Shown: piece after piece, positions 1 to 9,334 of the stretch | How the letters are laid out: the number at the start of each line of letters is the position of its first letter | Numbering within the stretch: the stretch's first letter is position 1 | Assembly (NCBI GenBank): GCA_037443365.1 | Contig: JBBIOM010000004.1 | Span: 56,272 to 120,271, forward strand | Origin: Armatimonadota bacterium | Lineage (GTDB): Bacteria > Sysuimicrobiota > Sysuimicrobiia > Sysuimicrobiales > Humicultoraceae | Reading direction: 5' to 3' | Length of the DNA stretch: 64,000 bases | Made by a program: the position numbers and the translations under genes | Notes under the pieces: model-generated | Seen by the model: only the letters and a program-made list of their open reading frames with translations | Told to the model about the DNA's origin: nothing | The model's database searches: none

Positions 1-2264
1 TGGTACTCGGCACCGGTGCCGCGGGTGCGCTGGCGGCGGCCTCTGCGCCCAGCCTGCTGCGCCGGTTCTTGCCGCCTCGCCGACGCTTCTGGTACCAGAA
101 CGCCACGACCGCCATCCCGACCGTGTGCGAGATGTGCCTGTGGCGGTGCGGCGCCATCGCACACGTTGCCGACGGCCGCGTGTGGAAGATTGACGGGCAT
201 CCCGACAACCCCAAGTCCAATGGTCGGCTGTGTGCGAGGGGCTTGGGAGGCCTGGGCGAGCTCTACGATCCCGACCGGCTCAAGAAGCCCCTGATCCGCA
301 CCGGGAAGCGGGGCGAGGGGACGTTTCGAGAGGCGTCCTGGGACGAGGCGCTCGACCTGTCGGCCAAGGCGCTGCTGGAGATCAAGGAGCAGTACGGTCC
401 CGAGGCCGTCGCCTTCTTCGGGCACTATGCCGGGGACAAATGGTTCGTGGACTACCTGGCGCCAGCCTGGGGGTCTCCCAACGCCGGCAAACCCTCCGTA
501 GCCCTGTGCACCACGCCCCGAGAGGTCGCGAGCAACCTGACCTTCGGCAGGCCGATTGGTGGCCACGAGCCGGTGGACTGGGACGATGTCCGCTACCTCG
601 TGCTTTTCGGCACCCATATCGGCGAGAACGCCCACAACACCATGATGCAGCAGTTCGCCGCAGCCCGGGCCCGGGGCGCCAAGGTCGCTGTCGTGGATCC
701 TCGCTTCTCCACGGTGGCCTCTAAGGCCGACCGGTACCTGCCGATCAAGCCCGGCACCGACACCGCGCTGCTGCTTGCCTGGATGCACTGGCTCATCGCC
801 CGCGGCCACTACGACGCTGATTACATAGCGCGGTACGCCGAGGGCTTCGACAAACTTGCCGAGCACGTGAAGCCCTTCACGCCGGAGTGGGCCGCGAAGA
901 TCACCGATCTACCGGTCGAGCAGGTCGTGGAGGTCGCGAAGGACCTCTGCCGCTATCGGCCGCAGGCGGTCCTGGTGCCCGGCCGGCACGTGGTGTGGTA
1001 CGGCAACGACACCCAGCGGATGCGGGCGCTGTACCTGGTCAACATCCTGCTGGGCAACTACGGCCGGCGCGGCGGGTTCTACATCGCGGAGTCGCCGTAC
1101 ATCGAGGACTACCCGCTGCCGCCGTTTCCTATCGGATCCGAAGCGGGCGGCTGAGCAGGTCCTGCGCCCTCCGGTCCGGAGGGCCCCTCAGATCGGAAGC
1201 CGCGCGCCGACGGGCAGGGAGCGCGGTTCCTGCGGGGCGGCGTCGCCATCCAGGAACTGGTCGAGCCCATGGTCTCGGGCCAGCCGTACCCGATCAAGGG
1301 CCTGGTGAGCTACGCCGTCAACCTGTTCCACACCCTTCCGAATCCGGCACGCACACGCGAGGCCCTGGAGCGGCTCGACTTCCACCTGGCCATAGACATC
1401 CTGCCGCAGGAGCACACGCGCTGGGCCGACGTCGTGCTCCCCGAGTGCACCTATCTCGAGCGCTACGACGACCTCATCACCGTGGCCCACAAGCGGCCCT
1501 TCATCGCGCTGCGGCAGCCTGTCGTTCAGCCCATGCACGACACCAAGCCGGGCTGGTGGATCGCCCGCGAACTGGGGCTCCGCCTGGGGCTGGAGCAGTA
1601 CTTCCCCTGGAAGACGATCGAGGAGTACCTGGAGCAGCGCCTCAACTCGGTGGGCCTCACGCTGGAGGAGATGAAGCAGAAGGGCGTCAGCATCCAGAAG
1701 GGCCGGCCGTACCTGGAGGACTGGGAGGGGAGAGGGACGCCCTTCAAGATGACCGGGGGCAAGATCGTGATCTACTGCGAAGAACTCGCGAAGGCTGGGC
1801 ACGATCCGCTGCCCCGCTACGAGCCGACCCCCGAGCCCCCAGAAGGGTACTTCCGGCTCATCTATGGCCGCGCGCCCGTCCACACTTTCGCGCGCACGCA
1901 GAACAACCCGGTGCTCGCCCGGCTGATGGCCGATAACGAGGTCTGGATCAATCGCGAGGCGGCCGCCGATCTCGGCCTCGCCGACGGTGATCGCGTCATG
2001 CTGGTCAACCAGGATGGCGCCAGGAGCGGGCCGGTCAGGGTGCGGGCCACCTCGCGCATCCGCAGGGACTGCGTCTACATGGTGCACGGTTTCGGCCACA
2101 ACGCCCCTGGGATGCGCCGGGCCCACGGTCGAGGGGCCAGCGATACGGCACTGCAAACCCGTTATGCCATCGACCCGATCAGCGGTGGAGCCGGGTTGCG
2201 AGTCAACTTCGTCCGGCTGGAGCGGGGCAGCCGCACATCGCACCGCGCGGCCGGGAGGGCGTAG
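1..2264 (+). CDS. psrA: Polysulfide/thiosulfate reductase-type molybdopterin catalytic subunit (PsrA/PhsA family), 5' truncated by the window, with an in-frame TGA at 1152-1154 read as probable selenocysteine
   Basis: ORFs 69..1154 and 1269..2264 are in the same frame, with no stop between 1155 and 1268. Motifs: Fe-S CEMCLWRC...C, Mo-ligand region SVALCTTPREVA, ADVVLPECTYLER and a C-terminal molybdopterin-binding domain. The hydrophobic signal-like segment VLGTGAAGALAAA lies at the window edge. Confidence 0.9.
1151..1191 (+). promoter_or_regulatory. Bacterial SECIS-like hairpin after the in-frame UGA
   Basis: Stem GCCCTCC (1166-1172)/GGAGGGC (1178-1184) with loop GGTCC starts 11 nt after the UGA. 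CTGAG (1151-1155) can pair with CTCAG (1187-1191). Confidence 0.75.
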
Positions 2265-2267
2265 GCG

Positions 2268-2840
2268 ATGGCGCGCTTTGGGATGGCGGTGGACCTCGAT
2301 CGGTGCGTCGGTTGTCAGGCCTGCGCGGTAGCCTGCGCTGTGGAGAACGAGGTTCCCGAGGGCTTCGCGCGCCGGAGGGTAGGCGAGGTGGTCGCCGGTT
2401 GGGACCTCGACGACCTGCGTCTCCAGTTCCTGCACATGCAGTGCTACCACTGCGCCAACCCCCCCTGCATCCTGGTCTGCCCCACCGGCGCGACCTACAT
2501 CAACCGCGACGGCCTCTGCCTTGTGGACTACAACATCTGCATCGGCTGCCGGGCATGCGTCTCCGCCTGTCCCTACGGGATGCGCTACCCGCATCCGCGC
2601 GGCTTCGTGGACAAGTGCTCCATGTGTGACCACCGGATCCACAGCGACCGTCATCCGGCCTGCGTCGAAGCGTGCCCCGCAGGAGCACTGGTCTTCGGTG
2701 ACCTCGACGACCCGAACAGCGCCATCAGCCAGGCCGCCGCCGCGGCAAGCCGCGTCGAGGCAGACCGCCCAGAGACCGGCGCCCGGCCCAAGTTCCTCTT
2801 CCTCAACGCCCGGGTCAGTCCGCAGGAGGTGCGTCGGTGA
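2268..2840 (+). CDS. psrB: 4Fe-4S electron-transfer subunit (PsrB/NrfC/DmsB family)
   Basis: Four Cys clusters: CVGCQACAVAC, CYHCANPPCILVCP, CIGCRACVSACP, CSMC...CVEACP. Confidence 0.92.
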   Translation: MARFGMAVDLDRCVGCQACAVACAVENEVPEGFARRRVGEVVAGWDLDDLRLQFLHMQCYHCANPPCILVCPTGATYINRDGLCLVDYNICIGCRACVSACPYGMRYPHPRGFVDKCSMCDHRIHSDRHPACVEACPAGALVFGDLDDPNSAISQAAAAASRVEADRPETGARPKFLFLNARVSPQEVRR

Positions 2841-3763
2841 TCGAACTTCGCGACTCGGTCCTCAACACAACACTCCATCTGTGGGGCTGGGAGGTGGCGG
2901 TCTACCTGTTCCTGGGCGGCCTGGCAGCCGGGCTGCTGATCTTCGCCTCATCGGCGCACCTGGCCGGCCGTCGGCGGGAGTACTACCCAGCGGTCCGCGC
3001 GGCGACGCTGTGGACCCCGCCGATCATCCTGGTCGGCTTGGTCTCCCTCTGGCTCGACCTGGGCAGCAAGTGGAACCCGTTCTGGTTGTACCTGACCTTC
3101 CGGCCGTTGAGCCCGATGTCGTGGGGCGCCTGGATCCTGATCGCGGTGCTGCTCACCTCCTCGCTGGCCTCGGTCCCGGCGATCGCCGCACGAGGGGCAT
3201 GGCCATGGCATCGGTCGAGAACAGCCCTAGACCGCCTCGCGCGATGGGTGGGGCCGCGCGTGCGCACGCTCTCTTGGTGGAATCTTGGCATGGGCGTGGC
3301 CCTGGGGGTCTATACCGGCGTCCTCCTCGGGACCATGGTCGCGCGCCCGGCGCTCAACAGCCCGCTGCTCGGCCCGCTGTTTCTGGTCTCCGGAGCATCT
3401 ACCGCCGGGGCCCTGATCGTGATCCTCATCCCCGGCGGGCCGTGGGGTCGCCTGCTGACCCGTGCCGAGGTGGCAGTGAAACTGATCAAGTTCTCGATGC
3501 TCGGGCTGTATCTGGTTGGCCTGGCGACCTCCACCGCCTATGCACAGGCCGCCGCCGCCACGCTGGTAGCCGGTGCCTGGGCCTGGGTATTCTGGCCGGT
3601 CGTCGTGGTGGCAGGCGTGCTGGCGCCTCTGGGGATCGCGCTGGCTGAGATCGTCACACACCGTGTCAGCCGCGCCCTGGCACTGCTATCCAGTTCGATG
3701 GTCCTGGCAGGCGGGCTGGCTCTCAGGATCGTGCTGGTGTACGCCGGACAGCGCGGATTCTGA
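2837..3763 (+). CDS. psrC: NrfD/PsrC membrane anchor subunit
   Basis: WGWEVAVYLFLGGLAAG, DLG, SPMSWGAW and YTG motifs; about 8 TM helices; overlaps the psrB stop. Confidence 0.9.
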   Translation: MIELRDSVLNTTLHLWGWEVAVYLFLGGLAAGLLIFASSAHLAGRRREYYPAVRAATLWTPPIILVGLVSLWLDLGSKWNPFWLYLTFRPLSPMSWGAWILIAVLLTSSLASVPAIAARGAWPWHRSRTALDRLARWVGPRVRTLSWWNLGMGVALGVYTGVLLGTMVARPALNSPLLGPLFLVSGASTAGALIVILIPGGPWGRLLTRAEVAVKLIKFSMLGLYLVGLATSTAYAQAAAATLVAGAWAWVFWPVVVVAGVLAPLGIALAEIVTHRVSRALALLSSSMVLAGGLALRIVLVYAGQRGF

Positions 3764-3866
3764 ACCGCGAAGGGAGGGAGACAGACTACTACCCGCATCC
3801 AGTTCGTCACGTGAAGGCCGCTCGTGAACGAGCCCGACAACAACCATGCTTCAGGGAGGGAGTTTG

Positions 3867-4316
3867 ATGAAGAGAGCACACCTGGTCATTCTCGGCCTGG
3901 CCATCGCCATGGTCGTGGCAGCGCCGGCCGTCAGCAGGGAGTGGATCGAGCGGCCGTTCGTGACAGCCGCCGAGCGGATGCTGGCGACAATGCCGGCCGA
4001 CTTCTTCCAGATGGATCCGACGGCTGTCCAGCGGCTGATGGAGACCGCTCAGCCGCTGATCCTCGACGTGCGTGAGAAAGCGGAGTGGGACGCCGAGCGC
4101 ATCGCCGGCTCGGTGCACGTGCCGATCCGCGAGTTGGCCAAGTTCATTGACAGGCTGCCCGACAGCAGGGGTGCACCGATCGTGGCCGTGTGCAAGATCG
4201 GCTACCGCGGCGGGATCGCCATGACGATGCTGCGCATGTGGGGGTACACCAACGTGCGCGCGATGCGCGGCGGGCTCGACGCCTGGAAGGCCGCCGGGCT
4301 GCCCGTGACCAAGTAG
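3867..4316 (+). CDS. Secreted rhodanese-domain sulfurtransferase
   Basis: Signal peptide, LDVRE motif, active loop VCKIGYRG, C-terminal GGLDAWKAAGLPV; SD GGGAG. Confidence 0.88.
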   Translation: MKRAHLVILGLAIAMVVAAPAVSREWIERPFVTAAERMLATMPADFFQMDPTAVQRLMETAQPLILDVREKAEWDAERIAGSVHVPIRELAKFIDRLPDSRGAPIVAVCKIGYRGGIAMTMLRMWGYTNVRAMRGGLDAWKAAGLPVTK

Positions 4317-4349
4317 CACCGGGCCCGGGACATAGGATCGTCCAACACC

Positions 4350-4386
4350 GCGGTCCCGGGAGGGTTCCTCCCGGGACCGCCCCTTT
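4350..4386. terminator. Strong hairpin between convergent genes (probable terminator)
   Basis: GCGGTCCCGGGAGG-GTT-CCTCCCGGGACCGC forms a 14-bp perfect stem, followed by a short T run. Confidence 0.65.
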
Positions 4387-4401
4387 GCGCGACAATCCGT
4401 G

Positions 4402-4854
4402 CTAGATCCTGATGTCAACGATCGCCGAGACGCCCACTCCCTGCACGCGCCGCAGCGACTCCCATGGCTTGAGGTTGTCCACGGGCACCAGCGCCTTGAT
4501 GCGGAACGCCGCCTGGAAGTCCGCCTCAAGCATGGCCACGGCCTGCACGCGGTCAACCGCGGTCTTGGGCCCGGCGACCTGGGCGGCCCCCACGTACGCG
4601 CCCCCGGGCGAGGACGTGCCGATTGCGATGCTCAGGATGGGCACGACCTTCGTTTGCTCGCGCACCGCCACGCCGCGGTTCTGCAGGAGGTCGTTGATGA
4701 ACGAGTTGATCTGGGGAGCGAACGTGCGCACGGCGTACCCGATGCCCAGCGTCTTGATGATGCCGAATATGTCCTGCCCGCTGACACCGACGGCCGTCAC
4801 CCCGACAAGTGCCGCCACCGCAAGAATCACCGTCCCGGCGCGTGCCATTCGCAT
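4402..4854 (-). CDS. Hypothetical exported protein
   Basis: SD AGGAGG, N-terminal signal peptide, protein-like composition. Confidence 0.75.
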   Translation of the reverse strand: MRMARAGTVILAVAALVGVTAVGVSGQDIFGIIKTLGIGYAVRTFAPQINSFINDLLQNRGVAVREQTKVVPILSIAIGTSSPGGAYVGAAQVAGPKTAVDRVQAVAMLEADFQAAFRIKALVPVDNLKPWESLRRVQGVGVSAIVDIRI

Positions 4855-4985
4855 TGTTCGCCTCCTGACGCCCGAGGTGCGCGGGTTTGTTGTGGTTCTC
4901 TACCGGTGTTACGCAGCGCGGCCGCGGCATGTTCCCGAGGCCGTGCGGATCAACAGCAAGCACCCTGCTGTGGTAGCATGATGGG

Positions 4986-7646
4986 GTGACCCGCGATTCC
5001 TCGCTCACACCGATGATGCGCCAGTATCAGGAGCTGAAGGCCCGCCATCCGGGCGCGCTTCTCATGTTCCGGCTGGGCGACTTCTACGAACTGTTCTTTG
5101 ACGACGCGCGGGTGGCGGCGCGTGAGCTCGAGATCGTGCTGACCTCGCGCGAGGTGGGCAAGGGGCGGCGCGTGCCGATGTGCGGGGTTCCCCACCACGC
5201 GTTGACCGGCCACCTGGCGCGGCTAGTGGAACGCGGGTACAGGGTGGCCATCTGCGACCAGGTCGAGGACCCGCGCAAGGCCCGTGGGCTGGTTCGACGG
5301 GAAGTGACGCGCGTCGTGACGCCCGGCACCGTCATGGACGCCGCGCTGCTTCCGGCGCGCGAGCATCGCTATCTGGCTTCGTTGGGGGGCGGCGATGGCG
5401 CCTGGGGGCTGGCCGCGGTGGATCTCTCTACCGGCGACTTCCTGGCGACGGAGATTCGGGGCCCGGACGCGGACCGCCGCCTAGCCGACGAGTTAGCCCG
5501 GCTGGATCCGCGCGAGATCCTGGTCCCCGCCGGCGCTGTCCCGTCCGGCGGGGAAGGTGGGGCGGAGCAGATCGCCTCGGGCCGGTGGACGCAGTACGAC
5601 GCCTGGCGCTTCGATCCCGGGGTGGCGCGTCGGGCCCTGCGCGAGCACTTCGGCGTTGCCACGCTGGATGGCTTCGGCTGCGAGGGGCTGGCCCTGGCCA
5701 CGTCCGCGGCCGGCGCGCTGGTCGGGTACCTCCGGGGGACGCAGCAGGGTCCGCTTGCGCACCTGCGCGGTCTTCGCGTGTACTCCAGCGAGTCGGTCCT
5801 CGACGTGGACGAGATAACGCGCCGGAACCTCGAGCTCCTGCGCGGGCGCGGCGACGGCGGCACCCGCCACACCCTGATCGGCGCGCTGGACGAAACCGCG
5901 ACCGCCATGGGCGGGCGGCTGCTCAGGGAGTGGCTGCTGCGCCCGCTCGTTGAGCCGGAAGGCATCGCGTCCAGGCACGCCGCCGTGGGCGCCGCGCTTG
6001 GGGAGCGCGGACGCAGGGAGACCGTGCGCAAGACGCTGCGCGCGATGCCTGACATCGCGCGCCTGGTGGGCAGGATCGGCCACGGGTCGGCAGGGCCCCG
6101 CGACCTATGCGCCCTGCGCGAAGGGCTCAATCTGCTCCCGGCGCTGCGCGCGGAGGTGGAACGCCTGCCCGACGCGCGCTTTGCCCGCCTGGCAGGGGCG
6201 ATGGACCCGCACGCCGATGTCGCTGATCACATCGCCAGGGCCCTCGTGGACGATCCCCCAGCCGGGTTGCGCGACGGCGGGTTGATCCGGGAGGGGTACG
6301 ATCCGGCGCTCGATCGGCTCCGCGAGGCCGCCTCGGGCGGCAAGGCCTGGATAGCCGGCCTGGAGGCCTCCGAGCGCGAGCGCACCGGCATTCGCTCTCT
6401 GCGCGTGGGCTTTAACAAGGTCTTCGGGTACTACATCGAGGTCTCCAACGCCAACCGTCACCTGGTGCCGGAGGAGTACATTCGCAAGCAGACGCTGACC
6501 GGCGCCGAGCGCTACATCACGCCCGAGATGAAGGAGCGCGAGGCCGCCATCCTGGGAGCCGAGGAACGCATCGCCGCGCTCGAGCTCGAGCTGTTCGCCG
6601 CGCTGCGCGGGTCGGTGGCCGGCCGCGCCCACTCCCTGCTGGAGGCGGCCGCGGCGCTGGCCGAGGCCGATGTGCTGCTGGCGCTGGCCGAGGGCGCAGA
6701 GAGGTGGGGCTACGTCAGGCCGGAGATCACGGCCGAGCCGGTGCTCGATATCCGTGAGGGAAGACACCCGGTCCTGGAGCGCCTGCTGGAAGGCGAGCGG
6801 TTCGTGCCCAACAGCCTGAGCCTGGACGTGCGCGACCGAGGGCTGCTGATCGTCACGGGCCCCAACATGGCGGGCAAGAGCACGCTGCTGCGTCAAGCGG
6901 CGCTCATCACGATCATGGCGCAGATGGGCTCGTTCGTCCCGGCCGCCTGGGCGCGCATCGGTGTAACCGACCGGATCTTTACGCGGGTGGGCGCCACGGA
7001 CGAAATCGCCTCGGGCCGGAGCACCTTCCTGGTGGAGATGCAGGAAGTGTCGCGCATACTGCACGGCGCCACCGGGCGCAGCCTGATACTCCTGGACGAG
7101 GTCGGGCGCGGAACGAGCACCTACGACGGCATGAGCCTGGCCTGGGCCGTGGTCGAGTACCTTCACGACCGCATCGGCGCGCGCACGCTGTTCGCCACGC
7201 ACTTCCACGAGCTCACGGAGCTGGCGGAGATGCTGCCCCGCGTGCACAACATCGCCATGCAGGTGCAGGAGCAGGGGGAGCGGATAGTGTTCCTCCACAC
7301 GGTGGCCGAGGGGCGGGCCGACCGGTCGTACGGCATTCACGTCGCGCGACTGGCCGGAATCCCAGACGAGGTCATCGCGCAGGCGCGCCGCATCCTGGCG
7401 CAGCTCGAGGCGGCCGCGGCCCGACCCGGCGAGGCCGATGCCCCGCCCACGCCCTCGCGGGCGCGGCGGTCCAGGCAGTTGCCGCTGGCCCTCGAGCTCG
7501 CCTCCCCCCTCGAGGAGGAACTCCTGGACCTGGCCGTCGAGACCATGACCCCGCTGGAGGCGCTGCGGGTTTTGGCTGACCTGCGCGAGCGAGCGCGCGT
7601 GCGGCGCTCCGGATCCTCGGACCGCCGCGAACGGCGCCTGCAATGA
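4986..7646 (+). CDS. mutS: DNA mismatch repair protein MutS
   Basis: TPMMRQY, GDFYELF, TGPNMAGKST, DEVGRGTST, FATHFHEL. Confidence 0.97.
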   Translation: MTRDSSLTPMMRQYQELKARHPGALLMFRLGDFYELFFDDARVAARELEIVLTSREVGKGRRVPMCGVPHHALTGHLARLVERGYRVAICDQVEDPRKARGLVRREVTRVVTPGTVMDAALLPAREHRYLASLGGGDGAWGLAAVDLSTGDFLATEIRGPDADRRLADELARLDPREILVPAGAVPSGGEGGAEQIASGRWTQYDAWRFDPGVARRALREHFGVATLDGFGCEGLALATSAAGALVGYLRGTQQGPLAHLRGLRVYSSESVLDVDEITRRNLELLRGRGDGGTRHTLIGALDETATAMGGRLLREWLLRPLVEPEGIASRHAAVGAALGERGRRETVRKTLRAMPDIARLVGRIGHGSAGPRDLCALREGLNLLPALRAEVERLPDARFARLAGAMDPHADVADHIARALVDDPPAGLRDGGLIREGYDPALDRLREAASGGKAWIAGLEASERERTGIRSLRVGFNKVFGYYIEVSNANRHLVPEEYIRKQTLTGAERYITPEMKEREAAILGAEERIAALELELFAALRGSVAGRAHSLLEAAAALAEADVLLALAEGAERWGYVRPEITAEPVLDIREGRHPVLERLLEGERFVPNSLSLDVRDRGLLIVTGPNMAGKSTLLRQAALITIMAQMGSFVPAAWARIGVTDRIFTRVGATDEIASGRSTFLVEMQEVSRILHGATGRSLILLDEVGRGTSTYDGMSLAWAVVEYLHDRIGARTLFATHFHELTELAEMLPRVHNIAMQVQEQGERIVFLHTVAEGRADRSYGIHVARLAGIPDEVIAQARRILAQLEAAAARPGEADAPPTPSRARRSRQLPLALELASPLEEELLDLAVETMTPLEALRVLADLRERARVRRSGSSDRRERRLQ

Positions 7647-9334
7647 GCCGGATTCGTGTGCTGGAGAGATCGGTCGCCGAGCGGATCGCAGCGGGTGAGG
7701 TGATTGAGCGGCCGGCCTCGGTCGTCAAGGAACTGGTGGAGAACAGCCTGGATGCGCGGGCCGGCACGATCACGGTGGAGATCGAGGGCGCGGGCCTCCG
7801 TCTGATCCGCGTGACAGACGACGGTGAGGGGATCCCTTCCGACCAGGCGGGCCTTGCGTTCGAGCGATTCGCCACCAGCAAGATCACAGGCGTTGAGGAT
7901 CTGGAGCGCGTAACGAGCCACGGTTTCAGGGGCGAGGCCCTCCCCAGCATCGCGGCGGTCTCACGCGTGACGCTGACGACCCGCACGCATGACGCTCCCA
8001 GCGCGGTGCGCGTAACGATCGCCGGGGGCGAACTCCTCGCAGCCGGCGCGCAGGGCGCGCCGGTCGGCACAGCGGTCGAGGTGGTCTCGCTGTTCTACAA
8101 CACCCCGGCCCGCATGAAGTTCCTGCGCTCTCCCGCGCGCGAGGGGGCGCTTGTCGCCGAGGCACTGCAGCACGCGGGGATGGCGCACCCGGAGGTGTCG
8201 TTCCGGCTCGTGGCGGACGGCCGCGAGGCCGCGTGGTGGCCGCGCGCGGAGGCCGCCGAACGCGTGGCAGAACTGATGGCAGCCGGCAGCCTCGAGGAGT
8301 TGATCCTGGCCCGGGGCACCGTGCCCGGGGGCGCCTTCCGCGCGTGGCTGGCTCGCCCTGAGCGGGGTCGGCCCAACCGGGCCGGCCAGCACCTGTTCGT
8401 CAACCGGCGTCCTGTAAGCAGCGCCATGCTGCGGAAGGCCGTGGAAGTGGGCTACGCGCAGCTGATGCCTGTCGGCCGGTTCCCGGCCTTTGCGCTCTTC
8501 TTGGAGATGGATCCCGCGGCGTTGGACGTCAACGTTCACCCCCGCAAGATGGAGGTGAGGTTCAGGGACGAGCCTCGCCTGTTCGGCGCCGTGGCGCATG
8601 GCATCCGGGAAGCGCTGCTCGCCAGCCCGCTGATTCGAAGCGCGCCTCTGCCAGCCCCGTCAGGGCCGCCCGTTGGCGTCGAGGTCCGCGCGCTGCTGCC
8701 AGAGGCATGGGAGGCCGCGGCGCGCGAGACCGCCGCGACCTACGCTCCAGGCACATACCGGCGCCTGCCCGCGCTGCACCCGATCGGGCAGCTGCTGGGC
8801 ACCTACATACTGGCCGAGGGAGAGGCCGGCCTCTACCTGATTGACCAGCACGCCGCGCACGAACGCGTCCTCTACGAGCGCCTCATCGCAGCCCGCCGCG
8901 CCGGCACCGTCGCAAGCCAGGGTCTGGTGGTGCCGCTGACCGTGGAGCTCGCTCCAGCGCAGATGGCACTGCTGGCCGGTTACACCGAGCGTCTCGCCGA
9001 GATGGGATTCCAGGTCGAGCCGTTCGGCGCCAGGACCGCGATCCTTCGGGCGGCACCCGCAGGGCTCCCGGGCGAGGGAGGCACGCACCTCCTGCTGCGC
9101 GCGCTCTCAGGCCTCGAGGACGCCAGGGAGGGGGAGGACCCCTCGGAGAGGATAGCCATCGCCGCGGCCTGCCACAGCGCGATCCGCGCCGGCGACCGCC
9201 TGTCTCCGGTGGCGATTTCGACGTTGCTCGCCGACCTCTGCGCGGCCGAGGATCCCTACACGTGCTTCCACGGCCGCCCCACGATCATCGCGCTGCCCCG
9301 CGAGCAGATCGAAAGATGGTTCCTGCGGGGGTAG
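7643..9334 (+). CDS. mutL: DNA mismatch repair endonuclease MutL
   Basis: IAAGEVIERPASVVKELVENSLDA, GFRGEALPSI, endonuclease motif DQHAAHERVLYE. Confidence 0.97.
   Translation: MSRIRVLERSVAERIAAGEVIERPASVVKELVENSLDARAGTITVEIEGAGLRLIRVTDDGEGIPSDQAGLAFERFATSKITGVEDLERVTSHGFRGEALPSIAAVSRVTLTTRTHDAPSAVRVTIAGGELLAAGAQGAPVGTAVEVVSLFYNTPARMKFLRSPAREGALVAEALQHAGMAHPEVSFRLVADGREAAWWPRAEAAERVAELMAAGSLEELILARGTVPGGAFRAWLARPERGRPNRAGQHLFVNRRPVSSAMLRKAVEVGYAQLMPVGRFPAFALFLEMDPAALDVNVHPRKMEVRFRDEPRLFGAVAHGIREALLASPLIRSAPLPAPSGPPVGVEVRALLPEAWEAAARETAATYAPGTYRRLPALHPIGQLLGTYILAEGEAGLYLIDQHAAHERVLYERLIAARRAGTVASQGLVVPLTVELAPAQMALLAGYTERLAEMGFQVEPFGARTAILRAAPAGLPGEGGTHLLLRALSGLEDAREGEDPSERIAIAAACHSAIRAGDRLSPVAISTLLADLCAAEDPYTCFHGRPTIIALPREQIERWFLRG

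Follow-up and report, generated by a model that had tools for sequence, protein, structure and literature searches.

A candidate selenocysteine at a conserved non-ligand cysteine in a Thermus-type PsrA of Sysuimicrobiota

The psrA locus and its single TGA

The stretch of DNA analysed here, referred to as the window, comprises 64,000 nucleotides (nt) of the contig JBBIOM010000004.1 from an Armatimonadota bacterium of the Sysuimicrobiota, and at its beginning lies psrA, followed on the same strand by psrB and psrC. The psrA gene is interrupted by one TGA codon, which, judged from the sequence, almost certainly encodes selenocysteine (Sec) in the place of a conserved cysteine other than the ligand of the molybdenum (Mo). 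The features of the locus, in window coordinates, are the following:

1–1151, + strand: 5′ part of psrA, with the twin-arginine (Tat) motif SRREF, the FS0 cysteines C42, C45, C49 and C77, and the Mo-ligand Cys169
1152–1154, + strand: TGA, the putative Sec codon, residue 384 of the read-through protein P0001 and about 393 of the full precursor, aligned to Thermus Cys388
1166–1184, + strand: candidate apical hairpin of the selenocysteine insertion sequence (SECIS) type, stem 1166–1172/1178–1184, loop GGUCC 1173–1177
1149–1201, + strand: possible extended SECIS, predicted with RNAalifold from seven TGA-bearing sequences, with little covariation
1155–2264, + strand: 3′ part of psrA, in frame past the TGA, stop TAG at 2262–2264
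2268–2840, + strand: psrB, four-cluster iron-sulfur subunit, matching DsrO/TtrB/NrfC-type models, all under their cut-offs
2837–3763, + strand: psrC, NrfD-type membrane anchor, NrfD model 98.7 bits, under its cut-off

The original prediction, made from the letters alone, had proposed that the two halves of psrA are in frame and separated only by this TGA, and this is what is found: from the start of the window onwards, frame 3 (+ strand) has no stop other than the TGA until the TAG is reached, giving a complete Thermus-type psrA. The read-through translation is ...PFPIGSEAGG-U-AGPAPSGPEGPSDRKPRADG...AIQELVEPM. The protein, P0001, has 753 residues inside the window; the ATG start lies 25 nt upstream of it, and the N-terminus (MRVSRREFM...) carries the Tat signal. 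The four-Cys motif of FS0 and the Mo-ligand Cys169 (SVALCTTPRE) are all present. Over 718 residues P0001 shares 62% identity with chain A of 2VPW, the PsrABC of Thermus thermophilus, and its AlphaFold model superposes on that chain with Foldseek template-modelling scores of 0.89/0.91. With the NCBIfam PhsA model NF012032 (Salmonella-type thiosulfate reductase) it reaches 512 bits, below the cut-off of 694, and the product is therefore called a Thermus-type PsrA and not a Salmonella-type PhsA. The adjacent genes 3′ of psrA, for a four-cluster ferredoxin and an NrfD-type anchor, are the neighbours expected of a PsrABC operon. By sequence, then, this is a predicted polysulfide/thiosulfate-type reductase subunit; Psr is reported to have been solved without substrate (PMC12949373).

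It had also been anticipated that standard annotation would split such a gene, and the databases bear this out. Two representatives from a library of 1.84 billion proteins, P0142 (401 aa) and P0159 (273 aa), end at ...GGAGG just before the TGA column, and when P0142 was searched against a collection of 5.8 billion proteins, 119 of the best 120 matches, about 340–411 aa long, also ended in ...GG at the column. Many of these truncated proteins come from contigs that exceed the length of the gene by far (up to 418 kb), and those that bear a name are annotated as molybdopterin-dependent oxidoreductase or as chain A of a thiosulfate/polysulfide reductase. Since 119 of the best 120 matches end there, the Sec form is common and is systematically truncated in databases. 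The codon itself is reproduced in independent assemblies: in Logan contigs that come from four further runs, belonging to three studies of subsurface and hot-spring metagenomes, 1152–1154 is covered at 93–98% identity, with no difference at the TGA or inside the stem, and with flanking differences at 1148, 1160 and 1185. No RNA run was among those listed.

A hairpin downstream of the UGA and the selenocysteine machinery

The predicted stem of seven base pairs (bp), with a loop opening in GG, is found where it was said to be, starting 11 nt past the TGA, and would have 8 bp if G1173–C1177 closes. Counted from the UGA, positions +12 to +18 pair with +24 to +30, and the loop GGUCC opens at +19. 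The genome's own fdhA (contig C2:62282–65476, − strand, outside the window), in which the TGA stands at the Mo-ligand motif CARV-U-HAPS, has a hairpin in the same register, with stem +12 to +18/+24 to +30 and the loop GGUCU at +19. Hairpins of 7 bp with a 5-nt loop starting GGU number 115 in 4,434,638 genome positions (2.6e-5 per position), and a TGA precedes them by 11 nt in 5 of the 115, against about 1.2 expected genome-wide; only at fdhA and psrA is this combination accompanied by a long read-through frame. The other three sites (C3:29697, C10:6539 and C39:7090) have short, low-complexity frames and were judged to be due to chance.

The hairpin is conserved among the relatives which carry the TGA. 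These form two groups, described below as clade A, to which this genome belongs, and clade B. In clade A, with seven distinct TGA sequences, 98% of 49 stem cells are paired, and the changes are compensatory, one stem pair appearing as AU, CG, GU and GC, and another as CG and UA. The covariation score is reached by 3 of 500 shuffles, and controls slid along the alignment pair in at most 61% of cells. The bases that covary belong to codons whose residues vary (P/A/T/L and G/V/S/A), so that the protein sequence of PsrA appears to bend in order to keep the RNA paired.

RNAalifold, run on the seven TGA-bearing relatives, independently finds the apical hairpin together with a middle and a lower stem. 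That the UGA itself could pair in a lower stem, as had been suggested, is supported in so far as this stem (GGCU/AGCC), which includes the U of the UGA, is predicted in seven of seven relatives, though it barely covaries. In this genome two of the five pairs of the middle stem are broken, which makes it weak, and it likewise shows little covariation. The folding energy of the 91 nt around the TGA is not unusual in DNA of 69% G+C (z = 0.35 against shuffles), and the minimum free energy of the 54 nt after the codon does not separate TGA forms from Cys forms. The informative signal is thus the specific local hairpin only.

The genome possesses the machinery that the original prediction called for, with selA (517 bits), selB (335 bits), selD (380 bits) and a tRNA-Sec of 70.9 bits with the anticodon tca. 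The genes selA and selB and the tRNA-Sec lie about 3–8 kb upstream of psrA on the same contig, and selD is elsewhere (contig C21:18065–18988, − strand). This selD has an in-frame TGA of its own (...VACAG-U-ASK...), being a Sec-type SelD, and the fold downstream of it is unlike the hairpin of fdhA and psrA. Among the relatives, G002, G014, G022 and G013 have both selA and tRNA-Sec, and selA also occurs in four of the five genomes with clade-B TGA forms in which it was sought.

The cysteine column, its distribution and the surrounding genes

The column at which the TGA stands is occupied by Cys in all 23 aligned homologues (58–84% identity, picked from the 120 matches listed), in the motif [AS]GGC, and never by Trp, Arg or Gly in the homologues that bear the loop. 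In 2VPW chain A it corresponds to Cys388, in the local sequence PAAGGCSGPS, in agreement with the AGGC that the original prediction gave for the Thermus protein. The Mo ligand is an ordinary Cys, as had been claimed: Cys169, encoded by a codon of the TGC/TGT type, aligns to Cys173 of 2VPW chain A, and the Sec would lie 215 residues downstream of it. Thus, with Cys in the ligand column and Sec at 384, PsrA falls outside the class in which Sec is the ligand (the FdhA/FwdB type). Across the loop-bearing clade, the TGA column is the only Cys that is conserved besides the Mo ligand and the four cysteines of FS0.

This Cys stands in a Gly-rich loop, itself an insertion, which relatives possess only from about 55% identity upwards, and which is absent in representatives at or below 49% identity and in ArrA. 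At the aligned place ArrA (6CZ7) has no Cys. A flexible Gly/Pro loop had been postulated, and a predicted local distance difference test (pLDDT) value below 50 at residues 381–408 of the AlphaFold model fits a mobile loop, which is weak evidence; it may also reflect the shallow alignment of 24 rows. In the Thermus PsrA crystal the loop may be ordered, since the 2VPW chain has 734 residues in Foldseek and 765 in sequence, leaving at most 31 unmodelled, about the length of a signal peptide.

psrA occurs in 7 of 94 Sysuimicrobiota genomes (E <= 1e-100), with TGA at the column in this genome (G000), G014, G022, G029 and G013, and TGT in G002 and G041. Metagenome contigs add two further TGA copies (L030 and L031) and two distinct Cys copies (L029 = L033; L032). 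A TGA counted in G041 and a TAG counted in G002 were rejected as stops at the column, both being terminal stops. Over the 40 codons past the TGA the frame is open and RADG...FLRG...QEL.EPM is kept in all seven TGA forms of clade A. A scan of species-representative genomes with the alignment, in which 80 loci of at least 588 relatives were kept from a tblastn ranking that may under-sample broken-looking genes, recovered the loop in 47 of the 80, of which 6 have TGA at the column and 41 TGT or TGC. These six loci (L038, L043, L045, L046, L047 and L050) are the Sec members of clade B, and belong to five metagenome-assembled genomes (MAGs) of Chloroflexota/Anaerolineae and one of Anaeromyxobacteraceae. 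All 13 TGA forms, seven in clade A and six in clade B, give long read-through frames. The clade-B hairpin is a different one, common to all six and situated about 6 nt further downstream (for example GAGGCA-GGUC-UGCCUC), with 88% of cells paired. The truncated P0142, whose matches end at the column, is an N-terminal half of this second kind.

A maximum-likelihood tree was built from 55 read-through proteins with the TGA column masked as X; it is unrooted, and excludes the loop-less loci, the duplicates L029 and L037, L036 (column uncovered), and L049 and L077 (both Cys, missed by the pattern). In it the two Sec groups are separate, clade A with 7 Sec and 4 Cys members (support 100) and clade B with 6 Sec and 1 Cys (support 95), each of them sister to Cys-only groups. 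At least six changes of state are needed, of which at least four are forced by well-supported branches. The direction of change is not readable from the unrooted count; because all the outgroups have Cys, gains of Sec from Cys, followed by reversions, are suggested by these sequences. The TGA-form psrA of the Anaeromyxobacteraceae MAG (L038) is nested among Chloroflexota sequences, which suggests that it was acquired by lateral transfer.

As regards the surrounding genes, the DNA between the tRNA-Sec and psrA (C4:53900–57700, just upstream of the window) encodes a histidine kinase with HAMP and HisKA_3, a response regulator of the LuxR type and, as a weak receiver-like match, a further open reading frame (ORF); these may control the psr operon. 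After the operon come mutS (4986–7646) and mutL (7643–9334), and the ORFs at 3807–4556 (− strand) and 4399–4989 (+ strand) have no Pfam match.

Readings of the TGA and the proposed role of the loop residue

Taken together, it is very probable that psrA is one intact gene whose UGA would be read as Sec by means of SelB and the hairpin, that its product would be a Tat-exported Thermus-type PsrA with a Cys as Mo ligand, and that the Sec would replace a second, clade-invariant Cys of the loop. Each refuting condition named in the original prediction was checked, and all of them came out in its favour. Several observations weigh against this reading. An Rfam search of 1100–1300 gave chance matches on the minus strand only, and no SECIS family. 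The Cys relative G002 (TGT), of the same genus, keeps a perfect GGUCC hairpin of 6–7 bp (L022 2650–2709); the hairpin is lost in G041 and L032, both TGT, and the pattern of the three fits recent changes from Sec to Cys, very recent in the case of G002. Unrelated hairpins exist in some Cys forms elsewhere (L068 and L075). Given that Cys forms also have hairpins, a hairpin alone is not diagnostic in this G+C-rich DNA. The clade-B stem hardly covaries, its score being reached by 163 of 500 shuffles. As to the machinery, no selA was detected at E <= 1e-20 in the Anaeromyxobacteraceae MAG which holds L038, and G029, a genome 72% complete, yielded tRNA-Sec and a selA fragment only. The sel genes are near psrA in this genome alone, lying on different contigs in G002, G013 and G022, and about 1.9 Mb apart on one contig in G014; their nearness was therefore rejected as support and given no weight, as it is not conserved in the relatives. 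Finally, homologues at or below 50% identity exist without the whole loop, from which it follows that the family can carry out its basic Mo reaction without the residue at the TGA column, which is accessory to the Mo chemistry.

The hairpins of L068 and L075, both Actinomycetota Cys forms, are perfect 7-bp structures (GCCGAGC-UUCC-GCUCGGC, at L068:1413–1472 and L075:3527–3586) about 24 nt past the Cys codon, and may be either chance or a relic.

The alternative that survives best accepts the insertion of Sec and differs as to its function: the residue would act as a redox switch, for regulation or protection, or would partner the Mo-ligand Cys in the resting state, instead of being a nucleophile which handles the substrate. 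We consider this unlikely. The loop is an accessory insertion, absent at or below 50% identity and dispensable for the core reaction, and in a tungsten (W) formate dehydrogenase of the same superfamily non-ligand cysteines form a disulfide switch that protects against oxygen; entries of the C872A variant of that enzyme are among the structure matches of the PsrA model. Nevertheless, besides the Mo ligand and the four FS0 cysteines there is no second invariant Cys with which it could pair; moreover, Sec is costly, a price seldom warranted by a switch, and yet two clades have it.

That the TGA is a true stop, psrA being a pseudogene or a split gene whose second polypeptide starts anew from the ATG at 1269, is very improbable. 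The deposited proteins of about 400 aa (P0142, P0159 and 119 of the best 120 listed relatives) would speak in its favour, but the TGA falls exactly on the codon of an invariant Cys in two separate clades, the frame downstream is open and conserved, the hairpin covaries, all 13 TGA forms read through at length, and a restart at 1269 would remove the conserved RADG...QELVEP segment. Equally little credence can be given to a UGA read without selenium, by a near-cognate tRNA for Cys or Trp or under a changed code: the product would still be functional, Cys being the normal residue, but the Sec machinery is complete, the hairpin agrees in type with the one in the genome's own fdhA, and TGA also terminates genes here, fdhA among them. 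An error of sequencing or assembly for TGT or TGC, conceivable in a metagenome-type assembly of 69 contigs whose closest relative, G002, has TGT, is practically dismissed by the TGA in five genomes, two metagenome contigs and contigs of four further runs from three studies.

If psrA is accepted as one intact gene with Sec in the loop, the sequence of events may be imagined as follows. SelB would read the internal UGA as Sec, guided by the hairpin 11 nt downstream, and the product, exported by Tat, would be the catalytic subunit of a PsrABC quinol:polysulfide/thiosulfate-type reductase. The Mo ligand would remain a Cys, and the Sec would sit in the Gly-rich loop ...AGG-U/C-[ASG]G.... There it could attack the S–S bond of a sulfur substrate, or carry sulfane sulfur as a selenenyl-sulfide, and the sulfur bound to it would then be passed to the Mo–Cys centre or resolved there. 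The exchange of Sec and Cys marks redox-active, reactive cysteines, and for that reason the loop residue is taken as a nucleophile or sulfur carrier; we infer this role as the favoured one, with the redox switch as its main rival. The shuttle arm for persulfide or polysulfide that had been imagined for the loop is a plausible form of it.

The main precedent for a nucleophile or carrier role is MccSep, described below, in which the Sec stands beside a haem-ligating Cys; a second is the Sud sulfur-carrier protein, which serves the Psr of Wolinella. There is a resemblance also to thioredoxin reductase, with its C-terminal Gly-Cys-Sec-Gly arm, in which a flexible, Gly-flanked Sec could travel from a buried redox centre to the substrate and back; unlike PsrA, where the loop is internal and without a neighbouring Cys, it is a flavoenzyme in which the Sec stands in a C-terminal tail with an adjacent Cys. 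With Thermus thermophilus PsrABC (PDB 2VPW–2VPZ) the resemblance extends to the FS0 cysteines, the Mo-ligand Cys (173 there, 169 here), the AGGC loop and the order psrB–psrC, and the difference is Cys388 there and UGA here. With the Sec formate dehydrogenases and FwdB, PsrA shares the dimethyl sulfoxide (DMSO) reductase superfamily, the fold and, as in the genome's own fdhA, the type of SECIS hairpin; however, in those enzymes Sec is the Mo/W ligand (U-H-x-P), and in PsrA it would stand in a clade-specific loop. To our knowledge, selenium in the DMSO-reductase superfamily is known only as a Mo/W ligand. Wells et al. (2020) report having met no member of the family whose Sec lies anywhere but at the ligand (PMC7331816). 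A mechanistic parallel may be found in MccSep/ExtKL of Geobacter sulfurreducens, which is described as a periplasmic pentahaem selenoprotein polysulfide reductase, with a metal-ligating Cys and a separate, mobile and essential Sec, and with Cys-type relatives (PMC13510729); its fold and cofactor, c-type haems instead of Mo-bis(pyranopterin guanine dinucleotide), are unrelated to those of PsrA, so that the likeness concerns the mechanism alone and, as regards PsrA, is conjectural.

A term search of the table of prokaryotic selenoprotein families in a 2026 review gave no entry for PsrA, PhsA or polysulfide; in the same text the word 'molybdopterin' appears once, for MoeB, and the molybdoenzyme rows are FdhA and FwdB (PMC13188914). 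Nor did term searches find a PsrA-type Sec in the deep-Sep paper, the Global Ocean Sampling (GOS) selenoproteome paper, Haft's 2022 preprint or the Sysuimicrobiota paper, whose supplements, which could list the gene, were outside the scope. More generally, the full-text literature, judged by its listings and with subscription papers and supplements outside the scope, gave no report of Sec in PsrA/PhsA or in a polysulfide or thiosulfate reductase. In the open literature searched, which did not cover the original structure paper, no role is assigned to Cys388 of Thermus PsrA.

A bolder proposal, which we put forward tentatively and regard as somewhat improbable in its entirety, is that the loop residue, Sec here and Cys388 in Thermus, constitutes a true second catalytic centre. 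Placed on a Gly-rich arm that swings, it would cleave the sulfur chain or capture it, in the form of a persulfide or selenenyl-sulfide, and deliver that sulfur to the Mo–Cys centre, in a two-site Mo/Se mechanism convergent with the haem/Cys/Sec arrangement of MccSep, for which selenium would have been recruited independently at least twice.

In any case, a non-ligand Sec points to a second reactive site in an enzyme of known structure, and, present in at least two lineages, it would be a new kind of selenium site in the DMSO-reductase superfamily and would add a family to the surveys of selenoproteomes. It also draws attention to Cys388, an unstudied residue of a crystallised enzyme from the genetically tractable Thermus. 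For the organisms themselves the consequence is a practical one: unless the codon is read as Sec, the respiratory enzyme would be counted as defective whenever the metabolism of Sysuimicrobiota or Anaerolineae is reconstructed.

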